64,000 nt of DNA. It comes from a virus (taxonomy: Duplodnaviria > Heunggongvirae > Uroviricota > Caudoviricetes). The notes beneath the pieces were generated by a model. The model had not been told where the DNA came from. It saw nothing but the letters and a program-made list of their open reading frames with translations, and did no database searches. The DNA lies in IMG/VR virus record IMGVR_UViG_2721755676_000001. One strand, written 5' to 3'. Shown one piece after another: positions 8,287 to 54,298 of this stretch (position 1 is the first letter of the stretch; every line of letters starts with the position of its first letter). The position numbers and the translations under genes are program-made.

Positions 8287-9119
8287 TGGCGCAGATCGAC
8301 TCGTATCGTAGCGGTGAAGCTGTTTCCCTTTCATTTGCCTTCAACGTGCTGGATATCGAATCTGCTACCTACACAGTAAAGGACAGCACCGGGGCTATTC
8401 TCGTTGATGGCGAGCCGCTAGAAATTACCAGCGGTCAAATGTCGATCCCGGTTGTCGTGTCGGCTGAATATAACCAGCTCTCTGAGAAAGAGCGAGATCT
8501 GCGGTACGTCATTGTGAAGGCTGTTGCATCGGGTCTGACGCATGAAGAGCGGCAAATGTATGTTCTGCTGAATAGTTTTGAACTGTCGATACCAGAACAG
8601 TCGTTTGCAACTGTCGCTGATGCTCAAATGCAGGCGATCGATATGCTGAATGGGGACACTTTGCTGTCGGATGGTGAAGGCTTAATGCGCAAGCGTCTCA
8701 TTGAGGCTACCAGACGAATTAAAACTTTACCGTTCTCAATCCGCAAAATTCTACGTATCGACTTTGACCGATACGATCGCTCTCAAAATATGCTGAATGT
8801 GTATGACATTCCGTGGGGAGCAGATGGAGCGTACCGGCATGATTTAGTCGATTGGGAAAAGATGACGCAGGAGAAGTTTGAAGAGTTCCCTGACTACTTC
8901 AAAGAAGCGTTGATGCTTGCCGTTGTCAACGAAGCGTGTGAGATCGCAAATGGCAATGATGTAGCCGCAGCACGAGAGGATGGCATTTTGTCAGAGTCCA
9001 TCGGTGAAACAACCAACATGTACCGTACCGGTAAAGCTGCAAACGTGCATGTGGCTCGTAGTACCTGGCGCTTGCTGGTCAGTTACATCAACAACCGTAT
9101 GATTGTTCGCCGTGCGTAA
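8286..9119 (+). CDS. hypothetical protein (head-tail connector region)
   Basis: ORF translationally coupled to upstream gene; synteny. Confidence 0.5.
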   Translation: MAQIDSYRSGEAVSLSFAFNVLDIESATYTVKDSTGAILVDGEPLEITSGQMSIPVVVSAEYNQLSEKERDLRYVIVKAVASGLTHEERQMYVLLNSFELSIPEQSFATVADAQMQAIDMLNGDTLLSDGEGLMRKRLIEATRRIKTLPFSIRKILRIDFDRYDRSQNMLNVYDIPWGADGAYRHDLVDWEKMTQEKFEEFPDYFKEALMLAVVNEACEIANGNDVAAAREDGILSESIGETTNMYRTGKAANVHVARSTWRLLVSYINNRMIVRRA

Positions 9120-39309: not shown

Positions 39310-40628
39310 AAAAGTTGATCGCACTTAAGCATAAGCTGGACGAAATGAAAGCTATGGGAACCAATGCAAAAAAAGAGGCATTGGCCAACATGGATGACTT
39401 TGAACAAAGCATGGTTTCATTGATGCTCAACCCTTTCATCCGTTTTGGGGTAAAGAAATACAAAGTGGCAGAGCCGCTTAGTGAGTCCATCCCAAGTGAC
39501 GAAAAAGCCATTGATGTACTGAATAAGCTGGCCTCTCGCGAGCTAACGGGGAACGCAGCAATAGCAGCTGTTGAGTCTATCGTGGCGTCAATGTGCGCCG
39601 ATGGGCAGGACGTGTTCCGTCGTTTCCTCTTAAAAGACCCGAAAGCAGGTGTTGGGATTAGCCTATGCAACAAGGTTTTTGAAAATCCCATTCCGAAATT
39701 CGAGGTGCAGCTGGCGTCAACGTATAAAGAAAAAGGCGACAAATACCCCTTCAAGCCAAATCCTAAAGCAAAATGGCCGATGATTGGCAGTCTTAAGCTC
39801 GATGGTTTGCGAGTAATTTGCGAGGTTATTGTTGACGAGGAAGAGGTTAACTTCCTTTCTCGTACTGGTAATCCAATCACGTCTCTCGATCACCTAAAGC
39901 CAGCCATGCTCGAATTAGGCAAACTTTCAGGCCACAAACACATCTTCTTCGATGGCGAAGGAACTGCCGGTTCATTTAACCAGTCCGTATCTGCATTGCG
40001 CAAAAAGAACGTGCAGGCAATTGGCGCTATTTATCATATTTTCGACTTCTTCCTACCGGAATGGCGAGCACAGGCTAAATCCAAAGAGTATGCAAAGACA
40101 GGTATGAAGCTGAAAGAGCGCCTGGCTATGCTGGTGGCGTTGTTCAAAAACGATCGCAGTGAAGGCTACACACAAGACATTCACCTGCATCCGTTCTATA
40201 TCATCCATAGCCACGAAGACTTCATCGAACGCTTCATGAAACGCCTGGACGATAACGAAGAAGGGGAGATGGGCAAAGATCCGAACTCTGTTTACGAGTT
40301 TAAACGTACCCGCAGCTGGTGGAAGTTAAAAGACGAAGATTCAGAAGATGGTGAAATTATCGACTTTGAGCCGGGCGATCCGGACTCTGGTTTTGCCAAC
40401 ACGCTTGGAAAAATTGTTATTCGCCTTGAAAACGGTGTGATTGTTCGTGCGAGCGGCATTAAGCATAAATATCTGGACGAGATCTGGAACAACAAAGAGA
40501 AGTACCGTGGTCGTATTGTCGAGGTTCATTGTCACGAGAAAACACCTGATGGCAGCTTACGCCACCCACGACTGAAATGGCCGCGTTGCTTACGCGATAC
40601 CGAAGATCGAATCGGAGATAAAGAATGA
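39306..40628 (+). CDS. ATP-dependent DNA ligase
   Basis: Adenylation motif KLDGLR (KxDGxR); size ~440 aa; GGAGG RBS. Confidence 0.7.
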   Translation: MKKLIALKHKLDEMKAMGTNAKKEALANMDDFEQSMVSLMLNPFIRFGVKKYKVAEPLSESIPSDEKAIDVLNKLASRELTGNAAIAAVESIVASMCADGQDVFRRFLLKDPKAGVGISLCNKVFENPIPKFEVQLASTYKEKGDKYPFKPNPKAKWPMIGSLKLDGLRVICEVIVDEEEVNFLSRTGNPITSLDHLKPAMLELGKLSGHKHIFFDGEGTAGSFNQSVSALRKKNVQAIGAIYHIFDFFLPEWRAQAKSKEYAKTGMKLKERLAMLVALFKNDRSEGYTQDIHLHPFYIIHSHEDFIERFMKRLDDNEEGEMGKDPNSVYEFKRTRSWWKLKDEDSEDGEIIDFEPGDPDSGFANTLGKIVIRLENGVIVRASGIKHKYLDEIWNNKEKYRGRIVEVHCHEKTPDGSLRHPRLKWPRCLRDTEDRIGDKE

Positions 40629-40840
40629 TCGTATTAAGTAAAAGGGAGAAAGAAACGCTTCATGAAATCAGTAAGTGGCCGGAGTTCCCTGAGTACTGGA
40701 AGCCTAAAACGCGAGCTAAGTTAGAGCGTTTAGGGTTGGTTGCAAACGTTTCTGAAACGTGGTGCTCGGCCAACTACCAGTTAACTGATAAAGGGAAAGT
40801 ATTGCTACAGCAATTAGTAGAATCAGGAGTGTTAAAATGA
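40625..40840 (+). CDS. hypothetical small protein
   Basis: Translationally coupled (ATGA overlaps) with ligase and next gene. Confidence 0.5.
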   Translation: MIVLSKREKETLHEISKWPEFPEYWKPKTRAKLERLGLVANVSETWCSANYQLTDKGKVLLQQLVESGVLK

Positions 40841-40989
40841 TTCCATACATCTCATTAGCTTTTATGGGTGGCTTCCTTATCGGCTTCGGCATCTGTCGTG
40901 ATTTAATTAAGCAGGAACTTAAAACCAAAACACTGTGCATCGGAAAGCGTGTGTATCGGGTAGTTCATGAAACAAAGGTTAGAAAATGA
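40837..40989 (+). CDS. small membrane protein (50 aa; not in ORF track)
   Basis: ATG 40837 overlaps upstream stop, stop overlaps next ATG at 40986; hydrophobic LAFMGGFLIGFGI. Confidence 0.4.
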   Translation: MIPYISLAFMGGFLIGFGICRDLIKQELKTKTLCIGKRVYRVVHETKVRK

Positions 40990-41276
40990 GCAATTTAACT
41001 TCTTGGGACTGGTGGTTGGCCACCTATTTCTTAGCGGCCGGAGTCGCATTCGCCTTTTACGTAGGTCAGTTAGTCGTAAAACTGCTGCTGATTAAATTTG
41101 CCAGTCATAAACGTATCGATGATGGTCTGTGGCGTCTTGGCACCCTGGTGGAAACTCGCTACGGGCAACTTAAGGAGAACGAAACCATTACTATCCAAGC
41201 GAAACGGTTCACTGCCACCATCACAAGAACACCTAGTCGTAGAGTGGCATTGATCAAAAAAGTCACAACCGAATAA
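40986..41276 (+). CDS. small membrane protein
   Basis: N-terminal TM WWLATYFLAAGVAFAFYVGQLVV; coupled to upstream ORF. Confidence 0.5.
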   Translation: MSNLTSWDWWLATYFLAAGVAFAFYVGQLVVKLLLIKFASHKRIDDGLWRLGTLVETRYGQLKENETITIQAKRFTATITRTPSRRVALIKKVTTE

Positions 41277-41285
41277 AAACATATT

Positions 41286-41313
41286 GATAAGTATTTACTT
41301 ACTTATCTTTTAT
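41286..41313 (+). terminator. stem-loop GATAAGTA-TTTACT-TACTTATC followed by TTTTAT (weak terminator; also a TAAGTA-family site)
   Basis: Read directly. Confidence 0.4.
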
Positions 41314-42054
41314 GTATAAGATGACTTTGTTTTCGTTGAGACGCGACTGTTTGAACTTAAATACAAGTGCAAACGAAGAAGTCTATCTGGCAGTAGCCTA
41401 ATAAGCCAAACACCAGCGAGGTCAGTTTCCAGCCTCGTTACCGAAATGGGACACACTGAGCGAGTGTGATTGCAGAACGCAGGAGGGAACATGAATGTTC
41501 CCTCCGATGAAGTAACAGAATGGGCGGTTGGTATATTTTCAACTCCATATGACTCCCGGATTCTTAGCCACTGACCGCCCATCCTGTTACGTCATTTTGT
41601 TCAATTATGTCGTTTATACTGGGTTAAAAAGCGGCGACGTAGCCCGGCTGGTATGGTTAGCCAGCACACAACGTTGAGGCCATTACATTTTTATCAATTC
41701 TAAGGTTCTATTCACAGAGATACCGGCGAGCGTTGATATGTAACATGTTGGGCAAACATTCAATCGGAGTAGTGGCCTCAACGTTGTGAAGACAGGATTG
41801 TTGTGTAGGTTTAACCACTGTTGCCATTGGTGCCTGTTTTCACAACAAATGATTCCATACATCACATTGTATAAATTACAAAGTAGGTGCTGTCCTCAGA
41901 AACATCATCTACTTAAAGATTTTGCCTTCTACTATTGAGCGAAGTCGAAAGCGTCTGGCACTAACGAAAAGTGCAAGTAGCGGTGCGTTTCCTGGCAGAA
42001 ACTAAACCGTTGCGATTGGCACTGTTGAGTAATAAATACTGGCAGTGCTGAATT

Positions 42055-42126
42055 GATGGTGTAGCTCAGCGGTAGAGCAGTTGGCTGTTAACCAACTGGT
42101 CGGTGGTTCGAATCCACCCACCATCG
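42055..42126 (+). tRNA. tRNA-Asn (anticodon GTT)
   Basis: Cloverleaf folded by hand: acceptor GATGGTG/CACCATC, anticodon loop CTGTTAA, T-arm GGTGG-TTCGAAT-CCACC, discriminator G then CCA. Confidence 0.85.
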
Positions 42127-42134
42127 CCAATTTA

Positions 42135-42218
42135 GGGGAGTTAGTCCGTAGGGGCAGCGGAGTAGACTGTAAATCTACTGTCATGGCGACTCGGGTGGTT
42201 CGACTCCATCACTCCCCA
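42135..42218 (+). tRNA. tRNA-Tyr (anticodon GTA), long variable arm
   Basis: Acceptor GGGGAGT/ACTCCCC, anticodon stem GTAGA/TCTAC with loop CTGTAAA, long variable arm, TTCGACT T-loop, CCA encoded. Confidence 0.8.
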
Positions 42219-42225
42219 CCAAATT

Positions 42226-42298
42226 GCCGGTTTAGCTCAGTTGGTAGAGCGCCTGCCTTGTAAGCAGGATGTCAGCGGTTCGAGTCCGCTAACCGGCA
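42226..42298 (+). tRNA. tRNA-Thr (anticodon TGT)
   Basis: Acceptor GCCGGTT/AACCGGC, D-arm GCTC-AGTTGGTA-GAGC, anticodon loop CTTGTAA, T-arm AGCGG-TTCGAGT-CCGCT, CCA encoded. Confidence 0.85.
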
Positions 42299-42525
42299 CC
42301 AATACAACGATAAGATCATTACGGTTAATCGTCGTTCATGTGCACAATGACTGGTCGAAAGGTAGTGATCTTACCGTTGTGGTGGATTCGCAGACTGATG
42401 CGATAGCTTTCTTGGATGTTAGGGAAATGCGGCCGCAAATCTTCCCTTTCGCGAGCGGTGATCGTCCGTAGTCCTAATTGGCTGCACCGTATGCCGGAGA
42501 TTCAGTACCGGCCACCACAACGGCC

Positions 42526-42609
42526 GGAGAGTAGGGAGCATGGTGCTCAAGCGGTCTTGAAAACCGTCCCATTGCGCAAGCGATGATGGTTCGATTCCAT
42601 TACTCTCCG
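42526..42609 (+). tRNA. tRNA-Ser (anticodon TGA), long variable arm
   Basis: Acceptor GGAGAGT/ACTCTCC, anticodon loop CTTGAAA, long variable arm, T-loop TTCGATT, discriminator G, CCA encoded. Confidence 0.7.
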
Positions 42610-42789
42610 CCAGACACAGCGTTGAGCGGTTTGGCCTTTTAATCACCCAGATTAAGACTCCGCTAACATAAACCAGACCGCTCAACGCTGTGATAGACAA
42701 TTACGGCAGACGTTCTTAACCATAGCTTGCTAACATCCTAGCAACACTTTTTTCAGCGCAAAATTCAAAGGGGCTTCGGCCCCTTTTTG

Positions 42790-43686
42790 TTAATGATTAT
42801 CTAGGTATGCTATTAACTCATTTTTAATGATAAGTGAATATTCTAAAATCTCACCTAGTAAATATTCTGCTTTTTTAAAATGCCAACCCATATAGCCTAA
42901 TTTTTCTGAAGGTCCTTCTAACAACATTATAATATCGCTGTCTTTCTCTTTGGCAATGTATTGTCTTATTTCTATCTCAAAATTATTTCTTGTCTTCCCA
43001 CTTATTGATGATTCATCCAAAACTTTAGTTATAAACTTTTCCGTGTCGATGAACTTTCCTGCATTATGCACAATTGTATGTCTTAGCAGCTCAATTAAAG
43101 TGATCTCGAAACGATAGTTTTTACCTATCTTGTTATTTATTTCTACGTCTCTAAAATTGGGTAACTTTCTTCTAAATACTTTCAGGATTTTTTTTGGTGC
43201 TTTATTATTTCTTTTTATCGCATTGTAGTAGGTTTCCATGTCTCCATTTTGTTCGATCTGAACATTTTTAAATTCACTAGGTTGCCAAAAATGGTCATGA
43301 ATACTCACTGTATGGGCATATATTTTCTTAATATAGTCTTCAAACAATTCATATGCTTCGGTTATAACCCATTGATACTGTTTATTTTTTAACACTTCAC
43401 ATAACTTTATCTTCTCTGAAAGATCTGTTCTAGTATGCCCAATTCCAAATGTTGAACCTGTATATGGATTTGAGCATGTATGGTTTGCTAACGTTGTCCC
43501 GCATGTTAATGGGAAAGTATTATTAGCATCTAGATTTTGTACGTTTTCAAGTGTATGCTTAAATCGCTTTATGTTGTCTTTCGTTGTAACATTTATATGA
43601 CCTAACAAGTCACAACGTAAAATTATTTCATTTCTTAAATCAGTGAATATTTTTTCGACAAAAGAACCTGATGGGTTTTCAATCAT
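42790..43686 (-). CDS. hypothetical AT-rich protein with HEPN-like R-x4-H motif (candidate abortive-infection/defence protein)
   Basis: 298-aa minus-strand ORF, Lys/Asn/Ile-rich, AGAGG RBS; motif RHTIVH; directly flanks tRNA cluster. Confidence 0.5.
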   Translation of the reverse strand: MIENPSGSFVEKIFTDLRNEIILRCDLLGHINVTTKDNIKRFKHTLENVQNLDANNTFPLTCGTTLANHTCSNPYTGSTFGIGHTRTDLSEKIKLCEVLKNKQYQWVITEAYELFEDYIKKIYAHTVSIHDHFWQPSEFKNVQIEQNGDMETYYNAIKRNNKAPKKILKVFRRKLPNFRDVEINNKIGKNYRFEITLIELLRHTIVHNAGKFIDTEKFITKVLDESSISGKTRNNFEIEIRQYIAKEKDSDIIMLLEGPSEKLGYMGWHFKKAEYLLGEILEYSLIIKNELIAYLDNH

Positions 43687-43861
43687 CTAAACCTCTACGA
43701 AAATCTTACCTATAAGACAGTCCTTAATGTAATCTGTTTTCTCCACTACTTCAAATTACCTCACAATCTATTGATAGGTGACTACCTACTTACATACAAA
43801 GTTGATTTATAGTATAGTCCCTCTGTTGCGTATTAGTATTTTAAAAGGCATCTGTTAAGTT

Positions 43862-44107
43862 ATGACGATCACTATCTACGGACGAGATAACTGCTCATAC
43901 TGCAAACGTGCGGTCGAGCTGGCGAAGCAACTAAAGGGACATGGCTACGGTGATTATAAGTACATCGACATCACCACTGCCGGTATCGATAAGGAAAAAC
44001 TTAGCGAAATTGTTGGAAAACCGGTAGAGACTATCCCCCAGGTGCTGATCGATGGCCAGCCGATTGGCGGATACACAGAGATGGCATCTTTCGTAAGTTT
44101 CTTATAA
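43862..44107 (+). CDS. glutaredoxin (NrdH/Grx-like)
   Basis: 81 aa with CSYC active site near N-terminus and glutaredoxin-like C-terminal GG motif. Confidence 0.8.
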   Translation: MTITIYGRDNCSYCKRAVELAKQLKGHGYGDYKYIDITTAGIDKEKLSEIVGKPVETIPQVLIDGQPIGGYTEMASFVSFL

Positions 44108-44144
44108 GTAAAGGCCACATCTTTGTATATATAGTACATATAAC

Positions 44145-44170
44145 AAAAAAGGCCCATGTGGGCCTTTTTC
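44145..44170. terminator. bidirectional intrinsic terminator (AAAAAA-GGCCC-ATGT-GGGCC-TTTTT)
   Basis: GC stem flanked by A-run and T-run between convergent genes. Confidence 0.65.
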
Positions 44171-44198
44171 ATAACTTCTAGCTAATCACTACAGAGGC

Positions 44199-44335
44199 TT
44201 AAAGACCACTTCACCCTTGCGTTCAGCTTCAGCTTTAGCAGTCATGAATCGTTTGATCATTTCGACTTTGCTAGCATGGATAGTTTTAAAATCAATCTTC
44301 CCTTTGTTTTGGGTAGTGTTGTGTTCGTATCGCAT
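44199..44335 (-). CDS. hypothetical small protein (45 aa; not in ORF track)
   Basis: Minus-strand ORF ATG 44335 to TAA 44199, overlapping the 3' end of the upstream minus-strand gene by 44 nt. Confidence 0.25.
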
Positions 44336-44846
44336 AGGAAGCTCCGTCATTTAAATAAGTTAGGCCACGCTCTTGTGTAAATCTCTTCACATATCTCTTG
44401 TATGTGGCCATCAGTTCTTCGCGTTCTGCCGCAAAGAATAAAATCTGTATGCCTTCATTGTCGGCAACTTTGAGCATTAAGTCAACTAAAGTACCGTAAA
44501 GGTATTGAAGTTCACCTAAAGTAAGATTAAAAGACCCTTCGGGTTTGGCAAATACGTTAATTGGCTCTTCCGCTCCAAGAGCAGCATTCTGGAGCTGTTC
44601 TTGCTGCCTGTCAAGTTGAATCATGTCCACAAAACTAACGACAGATACACACAACCCATAAACATCAGCACCTAACATATTATGCATAGTTTCTGCGGCA
44701 ACAGGATCTAAAGAAGGAGGGCAAAAGACTAAACGGTATCTAGCCTTACGAGCTTCATTGCCAGAGAAAACAAAGTCTATATCTAAATATGACAGATCAC
44801 CCGGCAATGAAGCCAAACCAGGTGTAACCAACTTATGCAAGTGCAT
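44292..44846 (-). CDS. hypothetical protein
   Basis: 184-aa minus-strand ORF divergent from the recombinase gene. Confidence 0.5.
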   Translation of the reverse strand: MHLHKLVTPGLASLPGDLSYLDIDFVFSGNEARKARYRLVFCPPSLDPVAAETMHNMLGADVYGLCVSVVSFVDMIQLDRQQEQLQNAALGAEEPINVFAKPEGSFNLTLGELQYLYGTLVDLMLKVADNEGIQILFFAAEREELMATYKRYVKRFTQERGLTYLNDGASYAIRTQHYPKQRED

Positions 44847-44985
44847 CTGTCTCGAATCCCTCTTTATTAGTATAAGTTGTCTTATTGTACCCTACCAAAC
44901 GTTTATATGCATTGTTATGTATTATTTTGATTTTCAATATTACCTCCTAGAACGAAGGGTAGATTTCAAAAAACGCATCCTTAAT

Positions 44986-45012
44986 GATTCCATACCTACT
45001 ATGTATGGAATC
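44986..45012. repeat. perfect 10-bp inverted repeat GATTCCATAC-N7-GTATGGAATC in recombinase upstream region
   Basis: Read directly. Confidence 0.7.
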
Positions 45013-45113
45013 ATTAGTGAAAATGAGTTACTTTTACTCTTGATCCTATAAGAATCTATGCCTAATATACTGTTTACTTATACAGTGAATCGGCGTAACT
45101 CGGTGATTGTCAT

Positions 45114-46217
45114 ATGAAAAATAGCTTTGACAGAGCACGCGCTGCGGAGAACACCTCAAAAGAGGCGATAGAGTATCTCGAAAGAGCATCTCAAATGCAG
45201 GCCGTTATGATCTCCCAGGTCAGCAATGACATGAGATTCTCGGACGCATTCATGTTATTCACTCGCTTATCTCTGCTGATAACCAGACGTCGGCCAGAGA
45301 TCGCTGTTCATTGTATTTTGATACATGTTTTGCCGCACATTGCCGATGTAAAAGTAAGTGACATTAATAGGTTCATGGTGAACCAACTGGTCAACCCACT
45401 AATACTGGATGGCAAAATTGTTATGGGCCGCCGCGTTTTCTCTCTGATGAAGCAGTTCCTTAGCTGGTGCGCCTTCCAGGGGATGATAGACGTGTCACCG
45501 TTAAACGATATGTCACTAAACAAAGTTGCCGGTGGCGCAAAGCCCACACCTCGCGAGCGGAAGCTGACCGACGCAGAGGTATGGGTGTTCTGGAATATAT
45601 GGGACTACTTCAATGTGTGCGCTGGTACAAAATGGGCGGCCAGGCTGTGTCTTGTATCCGCAAGACGACCTGACGAAGTACTGCGGGCTAAAAAAAGTGA
45701 GTTCAATCTTAAGCGTGGGGTTTGGAATCAAGGCAAGAGGAACAAATCTGCCCGTGAGCATTCTCTGCCTTTAAGCTCATTAATGCGCACTTGTATTGAA
45801 GAGTTGTTCGAATATGGTAAAGACAGCCAGTGGCTCGTGCCTTCGAATAAAAAAATCGGGAAAGACCTTCCTATGTCTAAAGTGGCAATAGCCCAGGCAT
45901 TACGTCGTATTCTGGAACGACCAGAACTGATGGAGCTTGAGCCATTTACACCCCGAGACTTGCGCCGTACTGCGCGTAGTTACTTCCCAGCATTAGGCAT
46001 AAGCCAGGAGGTATCACGCAAAATCATGAACCACAGTCTTGAGGGGATAGATCGAGTCTACGACCGGCACGATTATATGGACGAGATGCGAGACGCCTTA
46101 GAAAGTTTCTCGACGTACATCGCATCAATCGTAGAGCAACCGGATTTAGACGAAATTGACCACAAATTCAAGGGAGATCGTCTATCAACAGAGCTTATTC
46201 GTGTAAATTTTTCATAG
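45114..46217 (+). CDS. tyrosine recombinase / integrase family protein
   Basis: C-terminal catalytic-region pattern TPRDLRRTARS...IMNHSLEGIDRVYDRHDY (R, H, Y positions); upstream Arg ARRPDEV; GGTGA RBS. Confidence 0.65.
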   Translation: MKNSFDRARAAENTSKEAIEYLERASQMQAVMISQVSNDMRFSDAFMLFTRLSLLITRRRPEIAVHCILIHVLPHIADVKVSDINRFMVNQLVNPLILDGKIVMGRRVFSLMKQFLSWCAFQGMIDVSPLNDMSLNKVAGGAKPTPRERKLTDAEVWVFWNIWDYFNVCAGTKWAARLCLVSARRPDEVLRAKKSEFNLKRGVWNQGKRNKSAREHSLPLSSLMRTCIEELFEYGKDSQWLVPSNKKIGKDLPMSKVAIAQALRRILERPELMELEPFTPRDLRRTARSYFPALGISQEVSRKIMNHSLEGIDRVYDRHDYMDEMRDALESFSTYIASIVEQPDLDEIDHKFKGDRLSTELIRVNFS

Positions 46218-46598
46218 AGACTTTATGGCCTCAACAACCTTTTGTGATGCGCCTTTCTCTTTACCGAATCGCTCGTTATATGCAGCAAGAACCTGTTTTT
46301 CGTCCTCGTTAAGAGGAGCGGTGCCTTCTTTGTATAAAAATGCTGCGAGTTCAGGTTGGCGTTCTTCCAGCACCATCATCATAAGACGACTTGGCTCAAT
46401 ACCCAGCGCCAGCGCCAACGGACGAACCTTATCGATAGGCAAAGGAATTTTGCCACTTTTAATTAAAGAAAGGTTGTTGGCATTTTTATAACCAATAAGT
46501 CTGGCTATTTGGGCCTGACTCATAGGTGAGGATTCAATCAGCCCTGCGATAAAAGCAGCATAGCGACTTTCTATAAATTCAATCTTGTTGTCAGACAT
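46212..46598 (-). CDS. XRE-family helix-turn-helix transcriptional regulator (putative repressor)
   Basis: HTH-like MSQAQIARLIGYKNANNLSLIKSGK; convergent with recombinase gene; AAAGG RBS. Confidence 0.7.
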   Translation of the reverse strand: MSDNKIEFIESRYAAFIAGLIESSPMSQAQIARLIGYKNANNLSLIKSGKIPLPIDKVRPLALALGIEPSRLMMMVLEERQPELAAFLYKEGTAPLNEDEKQVLAAYNERFGKEKGASQKVVEAIKSL

Positions 46599-46626
46599 TG
46601 TTACAACCTTTGCGCGTTCAATTCTC

Positions 46627-46640
46627 TCTGGTAAGTGCTT
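46627..46640. promoter_or_regulatory. perfect 14-bp palindrome GGTAAGTGCTTACC (candidate operator) upstream of the XRE regulator gene
   Basis: Read directly; 29 nt upstream of the regulator start codon; shares GTAAGT half-site with the genome-wide motif. Confidence 0.5.
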
Positions 46641-46848
46641 ACCGATATTACATCAAAGGTTAGGGTTGTAAAGCTATTATCATTTTTTCGATAGGCACTT
46701 AAAAGACCGGTTAAAGGCCATTGCACGGAGAAAAATTAGCCCAAAACAGGTAAGAAAATTAACTTGCATATGATATGAATGTATTCAGTATTGATATAAA
46801 TTTTAGTAGTATTCCTTACCATAGTATAAGTTAGAATGGATTGATTGA

Positions 46849-47061
46849 ATGAACACCACTATTTCCAGCCTAATCGCTCTTGAGATCGGACACGTACAGA
46901 AATTAGCTGATGAGTGTGTAGCTGACATCCTCACCGATCTACCGAATGAGCAGATTCAGGTTGGTGTGAATGACACAACTGGCTTTATATTCGAACTTAA
47001 CAACAAACGCTTCACGCTTCTCAATATCGGCTCCGGGTCTTTAGCCGTCAGAATCTGTTAA
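46849..47061 (+). CDS. hypothetical small protein divergent from the repressor (Cro-like position)
   Basis: 70-aa ORF preceded by TATAAGTTAG; followed by stem-loop at 47074-47106. Confidence 0.35.
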   Translation: MNTTISSLIALEIGHVQKLADECVADILTDLPNEQIQVGVNDTTGFIFELNNKRFTLLNIGSGSLAVRIC

Positions 47062-47159
47062 CCCCTCTTCTCCCTGCGCGAATGGCTTAGTTCCCTGTTC
47101 GCGCAGTGCTACATTAAACACACTAGTAAATAATTTGTTTTCATAACAAAGGATTAGCC

Positions 47160-49268
47160 ATGTCTAAAAAACGTTCCATCAAAGAGGTTCAGGACTTCCG
47201 TGACAGTGTAAAACGAGTAGTCGCTCTCCTTTCAGGTAAAAACATCCCTGTTGCAGAACGAGGGGACGACGCTTATGTACGCTATAACGATGATGGAGAG
47301 CCAATTCTCGTAAACATCCCATCAATCCCGGATAACGCAACACCGGCATTGATGAATGCTGTGCGCGGATTTCTCGATCATGAGGTTGCTCACATTTTGT
47401 TTACCGATATTCGTGTGTCCAACAAAATGAGAGAAAAAGGACGCGTTCCTTCCTGGTCGCTATGGAATGCCTTAGAAGACGTGTTCATCGAGCGAAAAAT
47501 GGGTCAGGTCTTTAACGGAACAAGACGTAATCTGATGGCAACTCAGCGCCTTATAATCGAAAAAGTCTTTAAACCAAAGGCTTCAGAGGCTATTGCTTAT
47601 TGTGGCAAAGATCAGCGCGCGCTTTTTCTAAACTTCTTTCTCTGTCCGGTTGTAAGAGCCTGGGATGGCCAAGCACCGTTCGTAGATTTCATGGATGAAC
47701 ATTGGCCTGTCATTGAGAAACCAATTTCATTATTAAAAGAACATGGTATCGATGTGGCCGTGCGTAACATGTCTTGCACCGAGGATTGTGTAAAGGTGGC
47801 TGCGACCATAGCTAAGATCCTCAAAGACACTGAAAGTGAAAGCAAAGGTAAGGAGTCAGCTCCGGGAAAAACTTCCGATCCTTCAGACGCTGACCAGACG
47901 GATGCCTCTGGAGAAAACAATGAAGACAACGAAGATCATGAGACTCCCTCAGTGTTAGATAATCACAAATCTATCAAATCAGAATCACATAGTAAGTACA
48001 AACATGATAATAACGACAGTGATGATTCAGATAATTCTGAATCATCAGAAACAATATTCGATGATACAGAAAATGATAAAGAGGTATCAGATTCTGATGC
48101 TTCTGATAACGCGGCGTCAGAATCATTAACCGCTGACCACGAAAAAAGAAAAACGACAGAAGACGGCTCTTCAGATATCCCAACTCCGTCAAAAATGAGT
48201 CTGGAAGAGGCTTTAGAGGAGCTGGATAGCATAGAAGATGAAGTCGGAGGCATGACAGAAGATGCTCTATCCGAAACGATTAAAAGCGAGTTAACAGAAA
48301 GCTCGAAAAGCGAATACAGGCCATACAATCGCTCATACGACTTCATCGGCTCGATTGATCAGGCAGAAGCCCATATCAAACGGCTTATTAAAACATTCTC
48401 CGATATTGATTTGGGAGGATATCCAATCAGCCGCTATCGCATCGTTCCTGAAGGCAACCAGCTCTTCGACAAATATATTGAAAAGCATCTTTCGTCAGGT
48501 GTTTCGTCGACGCTGGCAAAAGACCTGGAGCGAGCAATAGCAAGCAGAAACAGAGTTCAGTTTATACCGGGCCAGCGTCGGGGGCGCATTCATGGTTCTA
48601 GTATCTACAGATTAGCAATGAATGATGCTCGCGTGTTTCGTAAAAAAGAAGAATCTAAAGCCGTTAACGCCTGTGTTCAACAAGTGATTGATTTATCAGG
48701 TTCAATGAGTGGTATAACGATTAAACTGGCTCTTGCAAGTGCATATACCATCGCCGATGCCCTTGATCGAATAAATGTTCCCAACATTATCACCGGCTTC
48801 ACTACATTTGGTAGTCATATGGCGGCAGGAGAACTTAAGGCTGTCAAGTATGAGTTCTCTCGCTTTGAATCTTTAATGCTACCTATCATCAAAAATTGGA
48901 ATGAAAAGGTAAATTCTCGCGAAGTTCGCTCACGTATGGGGTGCGTAGGCTACACATTCCCACTTCTTAATAACGTGGATGGTGAAAGCATAGCCAGCCT
49001 TGCATCGTTATTTTCCGGTCGCATGGAGGACAGGAAGATCATGCTTGTTCTGAGTGATGGCGCGCCGTGGGCTGTTGGGAGAGGTTTTGACGCTCATTTG
49101 CGTTCAGTTGCGAAGCAAATTGAAACGCAGACTGATATTGATTTGATGGCAATTGGCATCATGACTGACGCACCGGAGAAATTTTACTCAAATCATGCCC
49201 TGGTAACGAGCGTTGATAGTCTTGGTTCATCTGTAGTTACTGAACTATCTCGTATCATTTTAAAGTGA
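47160..49268 (+). CDS. CobT-like protein with C-terminal von Willebrand A domain
   Basis: MIDAS motif VIDLSGSMSG in C-terminal domain; long acidic Asp/Ser/Glu-rich linker; paired with downstream AAA+ ATPase. Confidence 0.7.
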   Translation: MSKKRSIKEVQDFRDSVKRVVALLSGKNIPVAERGDDAYVRYNDDGEPILVNIPSIPDNATPALMNAVRGFLDHEVAHILFTDIRVSNKMREKGRVPSWSLWNALEDVFIERKMGQVFNGTRRNLMATQRLIIEKVFKPKASEAIAYCGKDQRALFLNFFLCPVVRAWDGQAPFVDFMDEHWPVIEKPISLLKEHGIDVAVRNMSCTEDCVKVAATIAKILKDTESESKGKESAPGKTSDPSDADQTDASGENNEDNEDHETPSVLDNHKSIKSESHSKYKHDNNDSDDSDNSESSETIFDDTENDKEVSDSDASDNAASESLTADHEKRKTTEDGSSDIPTPSKMSLEEALEELDSIEDEVGGMTEDALSETIKSELTESSKSEYRPYNRSYDFIGSIDQAEAHIKRLIKTFSDIDLGGYPISRYRIVPEGNQLFDKYIEKHLSSGVSSTLAKDLERAIASRNRVQFIPGQRRGRIHGSSIYRLAMNDARVFRKKEESKAVNACVQQVIDLSGSMSGITIKLALASAYTIADALDRINVPNIITGFTTFGSHMAAGELKAVKYEFSRFESLMLPIIKNWNEKVNSREVRSRMGCVGYTFPLLNNVDGESIASLASLFSGRMEDRKIMLVLSDGAPWAVGRGFDAHLRSVAKQIETQTDIDLMAIGIMTDAPEKFYSNHALVTSVDSLGSSVVTELSRIILK

Positions 49269-50601: not shown

Positions 50602-50805
50602 GTGCGTAAAGGATGTTTCGGCTCTCTTATCGCTGCTTCTGAAACTGGTAAGGCTTGTCTGGTGTGTCCAGACAAGCCCGATTGTCACCAATCAGCAAAA
50701 GAAGTTGCGATTTCGATGCATGGGAAGTTCGTAGGCTTCCCCAATGACAAAATCAAAAAAACCAGAAAGGTAAAAACACATGAAGGCACTGATGGTTCGA
50801 ACTGA
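50602..50805 (+). CDS. hypothetical small Cys-rich protein
   Basis: 67-aa ORF with C-x13-C-x2-C-x5-C pattern; overlaps polymerase start. Confidence 0.35.
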   Translation: MRKGCFGSLIAASETGKACLVCPDKPDCHQSAKEVAISMHGKFVGFPNDKIKKTRKVKTHEGTDGSN

Positions 50806-53800
50806 CTTCTCACTTGGGGAGTCGGCTCTAAAAGCAGAAAACGCGGTGAAGATTGCCAGAGAAGCTGGCTACACCGCTGTAATTTCAGCAGATAGCATGA
50901 ATATTGCGAGCGTTATTCCACTACAACGTGCCGCTGGTGACGACATGGCGGTTATTTGTGGTGTGAAACTAAACATTGTTGATGATCCCACATACGAGCA
51001 CCGGGCTAAACTTGCTAAAGAATCTATGAGATGTATGGAATCATTAGAGCGAGGACGTAACTACTCGTTTACCGCTCTAATTAAAAATGAGAAAGGATAT
51101 CGCGACATCTGCGAACTAATGACGGCGGCCAACACACGAGAACAGTTCTACTTTGTACCGCGTCTCTCGCTCGAACAGTTGGTTTCTACATATGCCAAAG
51201 GCAACATCATCCTGCTTACTTCCGACATCGGTAGCGTGTTCCAACGCAACGATTTTGCAAAAATCATAAGCACACTGATTACAGCGGGTGGAAAAGACAA
51301 CTTCTATAGTGTGGTTTATCCGCACCCTACCCCATTCTACGACCAGATTAACGTCCGGGCGATGAAAGTCGCCAGCGCATTGAAAATAGAGCCAGTGGCG
51401 TTCTATCCCGCTTATTACGAATCGATCGACGATGCAGACATTAAAGACATTGCGCACATGGTTACGAACAACATCAAAATCGACCAGCCGCATCGTCTGC
51501 GTATCCCCCACCAGCGAGATAACGCCGTCAATGGTCGCCGCCATCTCCTTGAGGCGCTTAAAGCCTTCTCCGTTCGCATGGATGTGCCGGTAACAGCTGC
51601 AATGGCCTCAACAACGCAGGATACCATTATCGATGCCTGCACATGGCGCTGGCATGAATTGCCGCCAGCACTGCCAAAGATGGCAGACGACGAGCCTGCA
51701 ACGCTGATGAAACTGGCTGTTGCAGGGCTGCGTAAACGTCTTACCACAAAAGAGTTTGGCTACACACCACCTGCTTCTGAGAACAGGGTTTATGTTGAGC
51801 GGCTAAAGTACGAAATGGACACGCTGACTCGCCTGGGATTCTGTGGTTACTTCCTGATGGTGCGCGATCTGATGAATCATAGTTGTGAAACTGGCATTCC
51901 CGTTGGGCCTGGTCGTGGTTCCTCTGCCGGTTCTCTGGTGGCGTGGTGCATAGGCATAACCAACGTCGACCCAATCCGTCACGGTCTTCTGTTTGAGCGT
52001 TTCATCAACCCTGAGCGTCTCGACTTGCCGGATGCGGACTTGGACTTCAGCCAGGCACGTCGCCATGAGGTGATCGAGTATCTGAATGAACGCTACGGCG
52101 AAGATTACGTTGCAGGCATTCCGAACTTCACCTACCTGGGCGCAGCCTCTGCACTACGTGACACCGCTCGTATTTATGGTGTGGAGTCCGCAGATATGGC
52201 GGTATCAAAAGAGCTGAAGAACGTCGAGGATGATAGCCTTCCATTGGAAGAGCTGCGCGAACAACTGGCAAGTCTCGACAAATACGCAACAAAATATCCT
52301 GATGCATTCAATGCAGCCTGCAAGTTACAAAGTCTTATGCGTGGCTTTGGTAGACATGCGGCAGGGATGATCGTAGCAGGTGTTCCTCTGACAGAACGTA
52401 CACCGGTTGAACGCCGTGGTGACGCGCGTTGTATCGCATTTGACAAGCGTTACTGCGAGGCTATGGGCCTAATTAAACTGGACGTACTTGGTCTGGCAAC
52501 TCTCGATTTGCTCGATAGTGCAAAACGCTACATAAAAGAGAACACAGGTGAAGATATCAATCTTGATGCCATTTCTCTTGAAGATCGCAAGGTGCTGGAT
52601 GGTTTTGCTGCTGGGTACACTCAAGGTGTTTTCCAGCTTGAATCAGGCCCAATGCGCAAGCTGCTTAAAGATTTAGGTGGTGGAATTGAGCCAATGAGCT
52701 TTAAAACGGTTGTTGCTACGACTGCGCTCTTCCGGCCGGGGCCAATTCAGTCAGGCATGTTGGATGACTATGTTTCTGTAGCCAAAGGCTTTATGACGCC
52801 GGAATCATTACACCCCGTTCTTGATGAACTTACCGCAGAAACAAATGGCGTGATTCTCTATCAGGAACAGACGATGAACGCGACTCGATTGCTTGCTGGC
52901 TTCACAATGGCTGAAGCTGACGGCGTTCGTAAAGCGATCGGCAAAAAAGACATGGAAAAAATGAAGAGCATGGGCGAGAAGTTCATCGTTCAGGCTCAAG
53001 CTGGCTGGATAGACGTTGAGCTGGAAGATGGCACTACACAGCGCATTCACCGTGCGGAACATTTTAAATGCGAAGACGGAACTCTGAAAACTGTCGAAGA
53101 GGCACTTGAGTACGGCGCAAAACTACCTATAAACGCAGTACGCGTTACAGCGTCACATCCAGGGCTATCAGAGATGAAAGCGAAGGAGATCTGGACCGCA
53201 TTCGAAAAGAATGGTGCCTACCAGTTCAACAAATCACACTCTGTTGCTTACTCCTTAATCAGTTATCAATCTATGTGGTTGAAAACTCATTATCCCGCGG
53301 AGTTCTTCGCTGCTGCTCTCACTATTCTTGGCGAAGATAAACACCAGGGGCTGGTTAAAGATGCGCTGACCTATGGTATTCGCGTATTGCCACCAGACGT
53401 TAACGTGTCATCTAACCGAATCGAGATCCGCACGCTTGAAGATGGCAGCCAGGTGCTGTATGCGCCCTTCTCTGCTGTGAAAGGGTGTTCTGAGAATGGC
53501 TGCCAAGCCATCATGAGAGCGCGAGAAAAAGTTGGCGGCAAATTCGAGTCACTGGCGCAATTCGAAGAAGCTGTCGAGAAACGTGCCTGTAATAGTCGAG
53601 TGCGCGAATCGCTGCAAAAAGTAGGGGCGTTTGCATCCATCGAGCCAGGCAGTCTGCCAGCAACTGATCCAGAGCGCCTACGCGACCAGGCTGAATTGAT
53701 GGGAAACCTTGTCATAGATGCAGTTAAAGCCTCACGTCCGTTTGAGATGAACCCCAAACGTTCGGCTGAAATTAACGTACTCATGACGCGGATGGCGGCT

Positions 53801-54298
53801 GAAATGGGCTTAGGTGATGAACTAATCCGCCCCAGCATTGGTATTAAGCCGAAAATCATGATCATTCTGGACAATGCGAACGGCAATGATGCTCGAACCG
53901 GTTACTTTATGGAGAACGGATACGACGACTTTAAGGCCAAGCTATTGACGGCTGGAGATTTACGCATGGGCGATCTCTATGTCACAGGTGTTTGCAAGAA
54001 GGTTAAAGACAAAGAAAAAGACTACACCAAAGACGAGATCGGCCAGTTCACCGACTTTATGCGTGAAGAGATCAATCTGGTGCGTCCGACCTATGTGCTG
54101 ACGTGTGGCAGCCGGGCAACTTCATTGTTTAACAACAAAAACAAGCCATCCGATTTGGTCGGCAGGAAGGAGTATCTTCCAGACCTTGACGTTACTGTCT
54201 TTTACGGGTTTAACCCCAACATTCTTTACTTCAGACCTGAAGAGGGAGAACGACTAGAAGCGATATTAGCCGACGTAGCAGAAACCATTAAGACGTGA
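50780..54298 (+). CDS. DNA polymerase III alpha subunit-like (DnaE-type) replicative polymerase
   Basis: N-terminal PHP-like domain; block GYFLMVRDLMNHSCETGIPVGPGRGSSAGSLVAWCIGITNVDP...LLFERFINPER closely matches the conserved DnaE polymerase core. Confidence 0.9.
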   Translation: MKALMVRTDFSLGESALKAENAVKIAREAGYTAVISADSMNIASVIPLQRAAGDDMAVICGVKLNIVDDPTYEHRAKLAKESMRCMESLERGRNYSFTALIKNEKGYRDICELMTAANTREQFYFVPRLSLEQLVSTYAKGNIILLTSDIGSVFQRNDFAKIISTLITAGGKDNFYSVVYPHPTPFYDQINVRAMKVASALKIEPVAFYPAYYESIDDADIKDIAHMVTNNIKIDQPHRLRIPHQRDNAVNGRRHLLEALKAFSVRMDVPVTAAMASTTQDTIIDACTWRWHELPPALPKMADDEPATLMKLAVAGLRKRLTTKEFGYTPPASENRVYVERLKYEMDTLTRLGFCGYFLMVRDLMNHSCETGIPVGPGRGSSAGSLVAWCIGITNVDPIRHGLLFERFINPERLDLPDADLDFSQARRHEVIEYLNERYGEDYVAGIPNFTYLGAASALRDTARIYGVESADMAVSKELKNVEDDSLPLEELREQLASLDKYATKYPDAFNAACKLQSLMRGFGRHAAGMIVAGVPLTERTPVERRGDARCIAFDKRYCEAMGLIKLDVLGLATLDLLDSAKRYIKENTGEDINLDAISLEDRKVLDGFAAGYTQGVFQLESGPMRKLLKDLGGGIEPMSFKTVVATTALFRPGPIQSGMLDDYVSVAKGFMTPESLHPVLDELTAETNGVILYQEQTMNATRLLAGFTMAEADGVRKAIGKKDMEKMKSMGEKFIVQAQAGWIDVELEDGTTQRIHRAEHFKCEDGTLKTVEEALEYGAKLPINAVRVTASHPGLSEMKAKEIWTAFEKNGAYQFNKSHSVAYSLISYQSMWLKTHYPAEFFAAALTILGEDKHQGLVKDALTYGIRVLPPDVNVSSNRIEIRTLEDGSQVLYAPFSAVKGCSENGCQAIMRAREKVGGKFESLAQFEEAVEKRACNSRVRESLQKVGAFASIEPGSLPATDPERLRDQAELMGNLVIDAVKASRPFEMNPKRSAEINVLMTRMAAEMGLGDELIRPSIGIKPKIMIILDNANGNDARTGYFMENGYDDFKAKLLTAGDLRMGDLYVTGVCKKVKDKEKDYTKDEIGQFTDFMREEINLVRPTYVLTCGSRATSLFNNKNKPSDLVGRKEYLPDLDVTVFYGFNPNILYFRPEEGERLEAILADVAETIKT

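Follow-up and report, generated by a model that had tools for sequence, protein, structure and literature searches.

A candidate Cre/lox-like multimer-resolution module of SSU5-type phage-plasmids, with a tyrosine recombinase that carries arginine in place of the box II histidine

Introduction

Phage-plasmids are expected to need dimer resolution, for which P1 uses Cre, and tyrosine recombinases are listed among the persistent genes of SSU5 elements by Pfeifer et al. (PMC7969092). Here we analyse a tyrosine recombinase gene, and a 35-bp lox-like inverted repeat beside it, in a 64,000-nucleotide stretch of viral DNA (IMG/VR record IMGVR_UViG_2721755676_000001; hereafter, the window). The region shares 98% identity with Escherichia phage Cyrano (OV696614), where the gene is CYRAN_44, 'Integrase'; that the gene is annotated as an integrase in databases is already known. 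Cyrano is pLF82, an SSU5-like phage-plasmid of the adherent-invasive Escherichia coli strain LF82, which is present at ~5.5 copies per cell and makes virions (PMC9928086). No description of the site, of the arginine substitution or of the function was found in the literature searched, including that on the pMT1/pFra/pHCM2 integrase and on phage-plasmid multimer resolution, and the arm sequences gave unrelated primer matches only in full-text literature. The 35-bp site is apparently undescribed so far; an earlier description is possible.

The described system that the locus most resembles in layout is Cre/loxP of P1, with its Dre/rox relatives. In both, a simple two-domain recombinase without an arm domain is encoded on a phage-plasmid, beside a single short site made of inverted arms and an asymmetric spacer, and multimer resolution is the expected role. 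The loxP spacer is 8 bp long, as opposed to 7 bp here. The likeness of the protein to Cre exists only at the level of the fold (Foldseek E 1e-2 to 1e-1, template-modelling (TM) score ~0.5, 10–12% identity), and the protein falls outside the Cre lineage. Cre is inactive with Arg at position 289, whereas the clade to which our recombinase belongs is fixed for Arg at this place; at the His/Trp position our recombinase has His where Cre has Trp.

The P4/SXT-type integrases (PF13356 + PF22022 + PF00589) share with the clade the central-domain signature PF22022 and the xDLRRT context of box II. The clade differs from them in having no DUF4102 arm domain, in carrying Arg for the box II His and in never being chromosomal in E. 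coli; their site is a tRNA-linked attP, whereas that of the clade is a symmetric palindrome. Judged from these comparisons, the module would work like Cre/loxP and be, by descent, of the P4/SXT type, missing two defining features of that type, the arm domain and chromosomal integration.

Results

The gene that encodes the recombinase is located as follows.

45114–46217, + strand: tyrosine recombinase gene of 367 aa; core-binding and catalytic domains present, arm-binding domain absent (from the open reading frame (ORF), PF00589, PHROG 1 and the fold)

The ORF, which includes FTPRDLRRTARS and MNHSLEGIDRVYDRHDY, matched the Pfam profile PF00589 (Phage_integrase) at 40.6 bits, above the cutoff of 27.1 (E 2.9e-10), and PHROG 1 'integrase' with an E value of 4.8e-47. 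The P4-type central domain PF22022 remained below threshold in the query (22.8 bits, cutoff 27) and is recorded for many members of the clade. No specific NCBIfam model was found (best 33.9 bits against a cutoff of 434). PDB chains searched with the single sequence gave no match, and a profile was required; that of 29 homologs led to lambda Int (PDB 5j0n/1z1b, E 8e-12). The AlphaFold model, built from a 109-sequence alignment, has a predicted local distance difference test (pLDDT) score of 89.7, a predicted TM (pTM) score of 0.82 and a helical N-terminus. Its top Foldseek matches were lambda Int (1z1b, E 6e-7, TM 0.61), Tn1549 Int, XerH, IntI (2a3v) and Cre, and the recombinase-fold repressor SroF (9rgl) was also among the matches. 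The protein is, therefore, a genuine two-domain tyrosine recombinase with a secure fold assignment. An earlier note, made from the letters of the window alone, had called it a tyrosine recombinase but doubted the fold; PF00589, PHROG 1 and the fold, the last established independently by AlphaFold and Foldseek, all agree and settle that doubt. Another match, PHROG phrog_17497 ('unknown function'), corresponds to the C-terminal 130 residues of the recombinase (residues 224–353, window 45783–46172; E 2.5e-60) and is an annotation artefact from fragmentary gene calls.

An exhaustive profile search of 1.84 billion representatives placed the recombinase in an isolated clade. Two clusters scored 567 and 518 bits; the next sequences, at 202 bits or less, were integrases of ~400 aa with N-terminal extensions, and the nearest relatives proved to be P4/SXT-type integrases, at 24–31% identity. 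The PF13356/DUF4102 arm-binding domain, a defining feature of the IntSXT subgroup that has been described as indispensable to mobile-element function (PMC8138268), had no match in the query; it is missing from all clade members but present in their nearest relatives. Correspondingly, clade proteins are ~365 aa long and begin at the core-binding domain, and outgroup proteins are ~400 aa or longer with PF13356. Since the arm-binding domain of the nearest relatives has been lost, the clade represents a secondarily simplified recombinase.

The catalytic residues were assigned by alignment of the family profile with lambda Int.

R185, E188, K211, R281, R284, H307 and Y316: catalytic set of the recombinase, R281 replacing the box II His

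R185, K211, R284, H307 and Y316 align to lambda R212, K235, R311, H333 and Y342, and R281 falls on lambda His308, which corresponds to Cre His289. The segment 'FtprDLRRT' lies on lambda 'PTFHELR', and 'nhalegidrvY' on lambda 'GHKSDTMASQY'; the nucleophile Y316 is the first Tyr of YDRHDY. From this residue-by-residue alignment we conclude that the motif is not shifted and that the box II His is truly Arg. The earlier note had reported both the apparent loss of this His (in TPRDLRRT) and the expected placement of the other Arg, His and Tyr, and had suggested a profile alignment as a check; the alignment bore out both observations, restored no canonical His and gave a solid match to the family.

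Arg occupies the box II His column in 106 of 106 aligned clade sequences. The same column in the 148 nearest outgroup representatives has His in 142, Ala in one, Lys in one, gaps in three and Arg in one. This lone Arg comes from a 104-aa fragment that resembles a clade member, and none of the 147 full-length outgroup representatives has Arg. The other catalytic residues are invariant in the clade (R185 110/110, E188 110/110, K211 108/108, R284 106/106, Y316 105/105), apart from H307, which is His in 102 of 106 sequences and Gln in four. The codon of Arg281 varies synonymously among lineages (CGA, CGC or CGT), and the gene-wide ratio of nonsynonymous to synonymous substitution rates (dN/dS) is 0.05–0.08, with dS near saturation, indicating strong purifying selection. 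Fixation in all clade sequences with a synonymously varying codon means that Arg281 is not a sequencing accident, and the synonymous differences together with the low dN/dS mean that it is under selection. Other residues fixed specifically in the clade cluster at active-site motifs: R184 and D187 in box I (A-R-R-P-D-E in the clade, G-Q-R-x-G-E in the outgroup), D313, three residues N-terminal to the nucleophile Tyr, and R302. We propose that R184, D187, D313 and R302 may be compensatory changes.

Among tyrosine recombinases overall, the box II position is His in 87.3%, Tyr in 6.8% and Gln in ~1%, and at Cre position 289 only five substitutions, to Asp, Glu, Lys, Arg or Trp, abolish recombination (PMC2943603). 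As this is the least conserved position of the catalytic pentad, a missing box II His does not exclude membership of the superfamily. The four clade members with Gln at H307 (P0016, P0019 and two others; ~60% identity) also have the box II Arg and so depart from the pentad twice. The sequence PRDLRRT is also present in P0120, a metagenomic protein of 431 aa that bears PF13356 (28% identity), so that the arm-less clade is not quite alone in having the His-to-Arg change.

Upstream of the gene lies an inverted repeat with the following parts.

44982–45016, no strand assigned: candidate recombination core site, 35 bp, 97 bp upstream of the ATG; an inverted repeat conserved in the loci compared
44982–44995: left arm of the site, TAATGATTCCATAC, 14 bp, a perfect inverted match to the right arm
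44996–45002: spacer of the site, CTACTAT, 7 bp, asymmetric
45003–45016: right arm of the site, GTATGGAATCATTA, 14 bp

The loci compared, 7 from annotated plasmids and 64 from GTDB genomes, represent ~15 genera of Enterobacterales. A motif-free scan, which took the best perfect-arm palindrome with a spacer of 3–11 upstream of each gene, returned a site of the same family with a 7-bp spacer as the best in 65 of 72 loci; of the remaining seven, one is a gene fragment and the other six, all complete genes, have the site with a single mismatch in an arm. When one arm mismatch is allowed, the site is present in 70 of 70 non-redundant loci, and its 11-nt arms are perfectly symmetric in 64. The arms form two classes. 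TGATTCCATAC (class A) is found in SSU5-type elements and Chimaeribacter, and TGACTCCAGAC (class B) in Pantoea, Rahnella, Erwinia, Xenorhabdus, Photorhabdus, Morganella, Hafnia and Ewingella. Both arms switch class together, and the site of one locus (L030) is intermediate in one arm. The spacer, by contrast with the arms, is variable: it falls into 13 orientation-independent classes and can point either way with respect to the gene; 29 loci, for instance, have TTAATAG and 15 have CTATTAA, the same spacer in reverse complement. Conserved arms that vary symmetrically around a variable, asymmetric centre are the hallmark of core sites of tyrosine recombinases.

No gene other than that of the recombinase is always linked to the site. 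In Pantoea the neighbours are a TonB receptor/PagP or H-NS, whereas SSU5-type elements have phage genes there. Because the neighbours differ completely between Pantoea plasmids and phage-plasmids, the helix-turn-helix (HTH) protein encoded next to the recombinase is ruled out as the binding partner of the site. We also considered the palindrome as an operator of this HTH protein and rejected it, as megaplasmid loci have the site without the HTH gene.

In E. coli, the module is confined to plasmids. The site occurs once per replicon; Cyrano (~108 kb) has exactly one full site and encodes the recombinase as its sole site-specific recombinase, together with RepA, ParA and ParB; the protein annotated there as 'RuvC resolvase' is a junction nuclease. 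Of 5,426 complete E. coli genomes, 251 (~4.6%) carry the gene, in 253 places, all on plasmids and none on a chromosome. A blastn search with the 43-nt site region (E up to 10) gave the same count of genomes and 502 places, again all plasmid and none chromosomal. PLSDB has 1,080 plasmids with a homolog, 988 of them predicted to be non-mobilizable, in Klebsiella (385), Escherichia (251), Enterobacter (96), Pantoea (75), Yersinia (63) and Salmonella (54), among other entries; the Yersinia carriers are of the size of pMT1/pFra. Homologs of ~47% identity reside on Pantoea plasmids of 300–550 kb, which are not phages, and the places retrieved for the homolog P0006 are plasmid-sized (~106 kb).

In addition to the full site, the window contains single arms.

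40836–40855, + strand: orphan half-site AATGATTCCATACATCTCAT, a single arm plus ATC that lacks a partner arm, located where one small ORF stops and another starts
41848–41867, + strand: orphan half-site AATGATTCCATACATCACAT, non-coding, ~190 bp upstream of the tRNA cluster
51026–51045, − strand: orphan half-site AATGATTCCATACATCTCAT, antisense in the dnaE-like ORF 50780–54298, codons 83–88
45720–45729, − strand: degenerate half-site GATTCCAAAC, inside the recombinase gene (V-W-N-Q codons), with one mismatch to GATTCCATACATC

The arm followed by ATC, (A/G)TGATTCCATACATC, occurs three times in the window, where 0 copies would be expected for a 20-mer and ~0.008 for an exact 12-mer. A search with the 10-mer half-site, one mismatch allowed, is not significant alone (7 against 3.5 expected), and the significance comes from the exact and extended matches. 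Degenerate partner arms beside the half-sites were sought by manual comparison and rejected (0–3 of 13 matches). The half-sites keep their syntenic positions in Salmonella, Klebsiella and Y. pestis and stand out as invariant islands of 14–16 nt between diverged flanks. That at 40836 is an island of 15 nt present in all three. The copy at 41848 is conserved in Salmonella and two Klebsiella lineages and absent from Y. pestis, which has the caf1 operon in place of this region; in one replicon (L077) it reads GTGATTCCATACATC (GTGATT), tracking that replicon's own arm variant. The dnaE copy has 16 nt that do not vary among four lineages, five consecutive third-codon positions among them, whereas the flanking codons vary at the wobble position. 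The copy within the recombinase gene has exact counterparts (GATTCCATACATC) over the same codons in Salmonella, both Klebsiella lineages, Y. pestis and Kluyvera, and could be a coding coincidence.

Megaplasmid loci have no half-sites within 3 kb on either side of the gene. Since these homologs nevertheless have the full site and the catalytic set, the ancestral, conserved function is independent of half-sites, and the half-sites suggest an extra DNA-binding role, specific to the phage-plasmids. Tn4430 offers a partial precedent: its TnpI/IRS system consists of a simple tyrosine recombinase and a core inverted repeat whose motif also occurs as single accessory motifs. The extra motifs of Tn4430 adjoin the core, within ~100 bp, as accessory sites; here, in contrast, the single arms are 0.7–6 kb away from the core and some are in coding sequence.

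The site coincides with a break in synteny. To its right, the order promoter, recombinase, convergent HTH gene, small ORF, cobT-like gene, cobS-like gene and dnaE is kept in E. coli, Salmonella, Klebsiella and Y. pestis; to its left, gene content differs among lineages. In pairwise blastn of Y. pestis with Salmonella or E. coli, homology resumes at 8870/8871 of the Y. pestis locus, which is the first base of the left arm, and in other pairs it resumes 12–15 bp before this point. The variable slot is filled in Y. pestis by the caf1R-caf1M-caf1A-caf1 F1-capsule operon, the right end of which is within 3 nt of the arm. The pattern is better explained by a single site-specific crossover and one additional event than by insertion of a cassette, and the Y. 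pestis breakpoint suggests real strand exchange at the site. On Y. pestis plasmids of the pMT1/pFra type (NZ_CP009702.1; locus L078, 3099–8870), the caf1 operon replaces the tRNA/phoH/grx block, equivalent to ~41800–44981 of the window. A half-site at the left end of this replacement was considered and is unsupported: the end is ~48 bp before the pre-tRNA half-site and has no recombinase motif.

Two further elements lie between the site and the recombinase gene.

45040–45068, + strand: sigma-70-like promoter candidate for the recombinase, TTGATC (45040–45045), a 17-nt spacer and TAATAT (45063–45068), read from the sequence
45068–45087, no strand assigned: LexA (SOS) box-like palindrome TACTGTTTACTTATACAGTG, with a CTGT-N8-ACAG core at 45070–45085, abutting the −10 element

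The arrangement TTGATC-N17-TAATAT is conserved in five lineages, between the site and the ATG; it matches 8 of 12 consensus positions, which is below the threshold of a simple promoter scan, hence its absence from that scan's list. The CTGT-N8-ACAG core occurs only here in the window. TACTGTTTACTTATACAGTG agrees at about 16 of 20 positions with the LexA consensus, making it a putative box. It is found at a fixed offset from the site (+54 to +56) in 8 of 9 SSU5-type loci, and none of the other 61 (58 of the class-B megaplasmid type and 3 Chimaeribacter loci of class A) has it. SOS-repressed expression of the recombinase, in the phage-plasmid lineage only, would be a reasonable interpretation of this distribution.

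The surroundings of the module in the window contain the following additional features.

42790–43686, − strand: ORF of 298 aa, GC content 0.34 against ~0.46 elsewhere, no Pfam match, absent from Cyrano
42055–42612: cluster of four tRNA genes, Asn-GTT, Tyr-GTA, Thr-TGT and Ser-TGA; Cyrano has three, without Tyr
46212–46598, − strand: HTH gene, 128 aa, weak HTH_19 match, 'putative repressor' in Cyrano; convergent with the recombinase gene, with a 6-nt overlap
44146–44169: perfect 11-bp palindrome containing GC, AAAAAGGCCCA..TGGGCCTTTTT, between the glutaredoxin gene and a convergent small ORF

Low GC content and absence from the 98%-identical Cyrano indicate that the ORF at 42790–43686 is probably recently acquired cargo. 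The HTH gene beside the recombinase is conserved in SSU5-type elements and absent from megaplasmid loci, and the palindrome at 44146–44169 resembles a bidirectional terminator. Upstream of the tRNA cluster, 41667–41685 pairs with 41770–41788 in a conserved 19-bp long-range stem enclosing a variable loop of ~85 nt, with a hairpin at 41647–41652/41660–41665. The stem has 2 compensatory pairs in four lineages and a consensus energy of −42.6 kcal/mol, and the synteny with Y. pestis ends just past it. Rfam, run over 40000–47500, returned tRNAs only and no match for the stem, which could be a structured RNA, or else a processing or terminator element.

Discussion

We think it probable, though well short of certain, that the recombinase and its site form a Cre/lox-like multimer-resolution module of the phage-plasmid. 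The module would most likely serve to keep the plasmid monomeric rather than to integrate it into the chromosome. The earlier note had named integration or dimer resolution as possible roles, and resolution is now much the better supported of the two: integration is disfavoured by the lack of any chromosomal copy of the gene or site in 5,426 E. coli genomes and by the lack of an arm domain. The note had also left a choice between a divergent but active recombinase and a fold assignment in need of confirmation. The near-invariance of the catalytic residues, the dN/dS of 0.05–0.08 and the co-evolving adjacent site favour the former, and the enzyme is, thus, presumably active.

The recombinase would have arisen from P4/SXT-type integrases that bear an arm domain and would have been repurposed for plasmid maintenance, with the core-binding and catalytic domains only. 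In the mechanism that we envisage, two monomers bind the inverted 11–14-bp arms of the 35-bp site, of which there is only one; on a plasmid dimer, where the site is directly repeated, the two copies would then synapse and exchange strands across the 7-bp spacer, where we infer the crossover to lie, via a Y316 phosphotyrosine intermediate. Multimers of the ~108-kb phage-plasmid would in this way be converted to monomers, as Cre/loxP does for P1. Arg281 takes the place of the usual general acid/base His and probably acts in an active site remodelled by R184, D187, D313 and R302. Reaction between sites on different replicons would lead to fusion and exchange of flanks, and we propose that occasional recombination of this kind is the reason why synteny breaks at the site. 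In SSU5-type elements, expression of the recombinase is apparently repressed by LexA.

Several observations weigh against the resolution module. Cre H289R is inactive, and Arg could, by analogy, in principle disable catalysis here. With a LexA-type box, expression should be low in lysogens that are not under stress, which is awkward for a housekeeping resolvase. The orphan half-sites are unexplained by a role in resolution. Only the Y. pestis junction is precise, as the block conserved in E. coli, Salmonella and Klebsiella begins ~15–20 bp to the left of the arm. Finally, a chromosomal attB with only short core identity would be missed by blastn with the site region, and 3 of the 16 contigs that carry P0006 (0.2–1 Mb, one of 896 kb) were outside our inspection.

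Recombination might also be combined with a second, non-recombinational job. Under such a joint account, the enzyme is fully active with Arg buttressed by D187 and D313 as the substitute for the general acid/base, monomers in addition bind half-sites in and around replication genes (dnaE, the tRNA operon and the recombinase's own gene) in SSU5-type phage-plasmids, and recombination at the full site brought the caf1 operon to Y. pestis pMT1/pFra. Taken as a whole, this combination of claims is unlikely.

Likewise unlikely is that catalysis was killed by the His-to-Arg change and that the protein is now a domesticated DNA-binding regulator, that is, a repressor or architectural protein acting on the palindrome and half-sites. 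YopR (SPbeta) and SroF (phi3T) are such phage-encoded proteins of the recombinase fold, SroF is itself among our fold matches, and the half-sites could indicate comparable regulation. The inactivity of Cre H289R, the location of the palindrome just upstream of the recombinase gene's own promoter and the conservation of single-arm sites over ~10 kb, including those in dnaE and in the gene itself and one that tracks the replicon's arm variant, would agree with this. However, six of the seven catalytic residues, including the Tyr and both Arg, are invariant or nearly so in more than 100 sequences, which would be needless for a pure binder. YopR, by contrast, has only three of the seven, having lost both Arg and both His, and does not recombine DNA in vitro. 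Megaplasmid homologs, moreover, have the full site and catalytic set but no half-sites, and the breakpoint in Y. pestis suggests strand exchange. A dual role, with regulation in addition to recombination, is possible.

To much the same low degree, we can credit an integron-like platform, on which DNA would be captured or swapped beside the site under stress, producing the variable left region. Like IntI with attI, the recombinase has its primary site immediately upstream, variable cargo adjoining it and an SOS-box-like element in its promoter; intI is under LexA control. The lineage-specific left side next to a conserved right side, and the caf1 operon ending within 3 nt of the left arm, are what such a platform might leave. 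Yet the variable segments are not delimited by another full site or by a hybrid one, the caf1 replacement has its left end ~48 bp before the nearest half-site, and the conserved block extends 15–20 bp past the arm in three lineages. The site is a duplex palindrome, identity to IntI (2a3v) is 13%, and neither a cassette array nor attC-like repeats were noticed in the lineage comparison, which involved no systematic attC search or attC-model scan. Exchange of flanks is also an expected by-product of a resolvase acting between plasmids.

Slightly more doubtful again is a role in the lytic or infection cycle, in which the SOS-induced recombinase would circularise incoming, terminally redundant phage DNA or process concatemers. 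Cre/loxP has an auxiliary role in cyclisation in P1, and the SOS-box-like operator is specific to the phage-plasmid lineage. The element does make virions (PMC9928086). But megaplasmids of Pantoea, Rahnella and Erwinia, which are not phages and have no LexA-like box, conserve the module equally well, and its core function is therefore plasmid-generic. Both lytic cyclisation and integron-like capture could coexist with resolution. Very improbable, finally, is a canonical integrase inserting the phage-plasmid into the host chromosome at an attB: it would suit the P4/SXT-type relatives, the database label 'site-specific integrase' and the three uninspected contigs of 0.2–1 Mb with a close homolog, but none of 253 gene copies or 502 site matches is chromosomal in E. 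coli, for which chromosomal integration is essentially excluded, the arm-binding domain that mobile-element integrases need is absent (PMC8138268), no excisionase or arm-type sites were seen, and homologs also reside on the non-phage 300–550-kb Pantoea plasmids.

If the resolution module is active, the clade is a natural counter-example to the rule, derived from Cre, that Arg in box II abolishes recombination, and a ready system in which to study how the general acid/base role can be rewired. The candidate recombinase/site pair, with 35 bp, a 7-bp spacer and two natural arm specificities, could become an orthogonal Cre/lox-like tool. The site and the role proposed for it would correct the misleading label 'integrase', by which such elements are classed as integrative prophages. 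The site also marks a synteny breakpoint beside clinically relevant cargo, namely the F1 capsule operon in Y. pestis and toxin-antitoxin genes in Klebsiella. The recombinase is a persistent core gene of a very common family, which includes phage-plasmids of E. coli and Klebsiella, the pHCM2-type elements of S. Typhi and pMT1/pFra of Y. pestis, and for this family it would be the means of keeping the plasmid monomeric.

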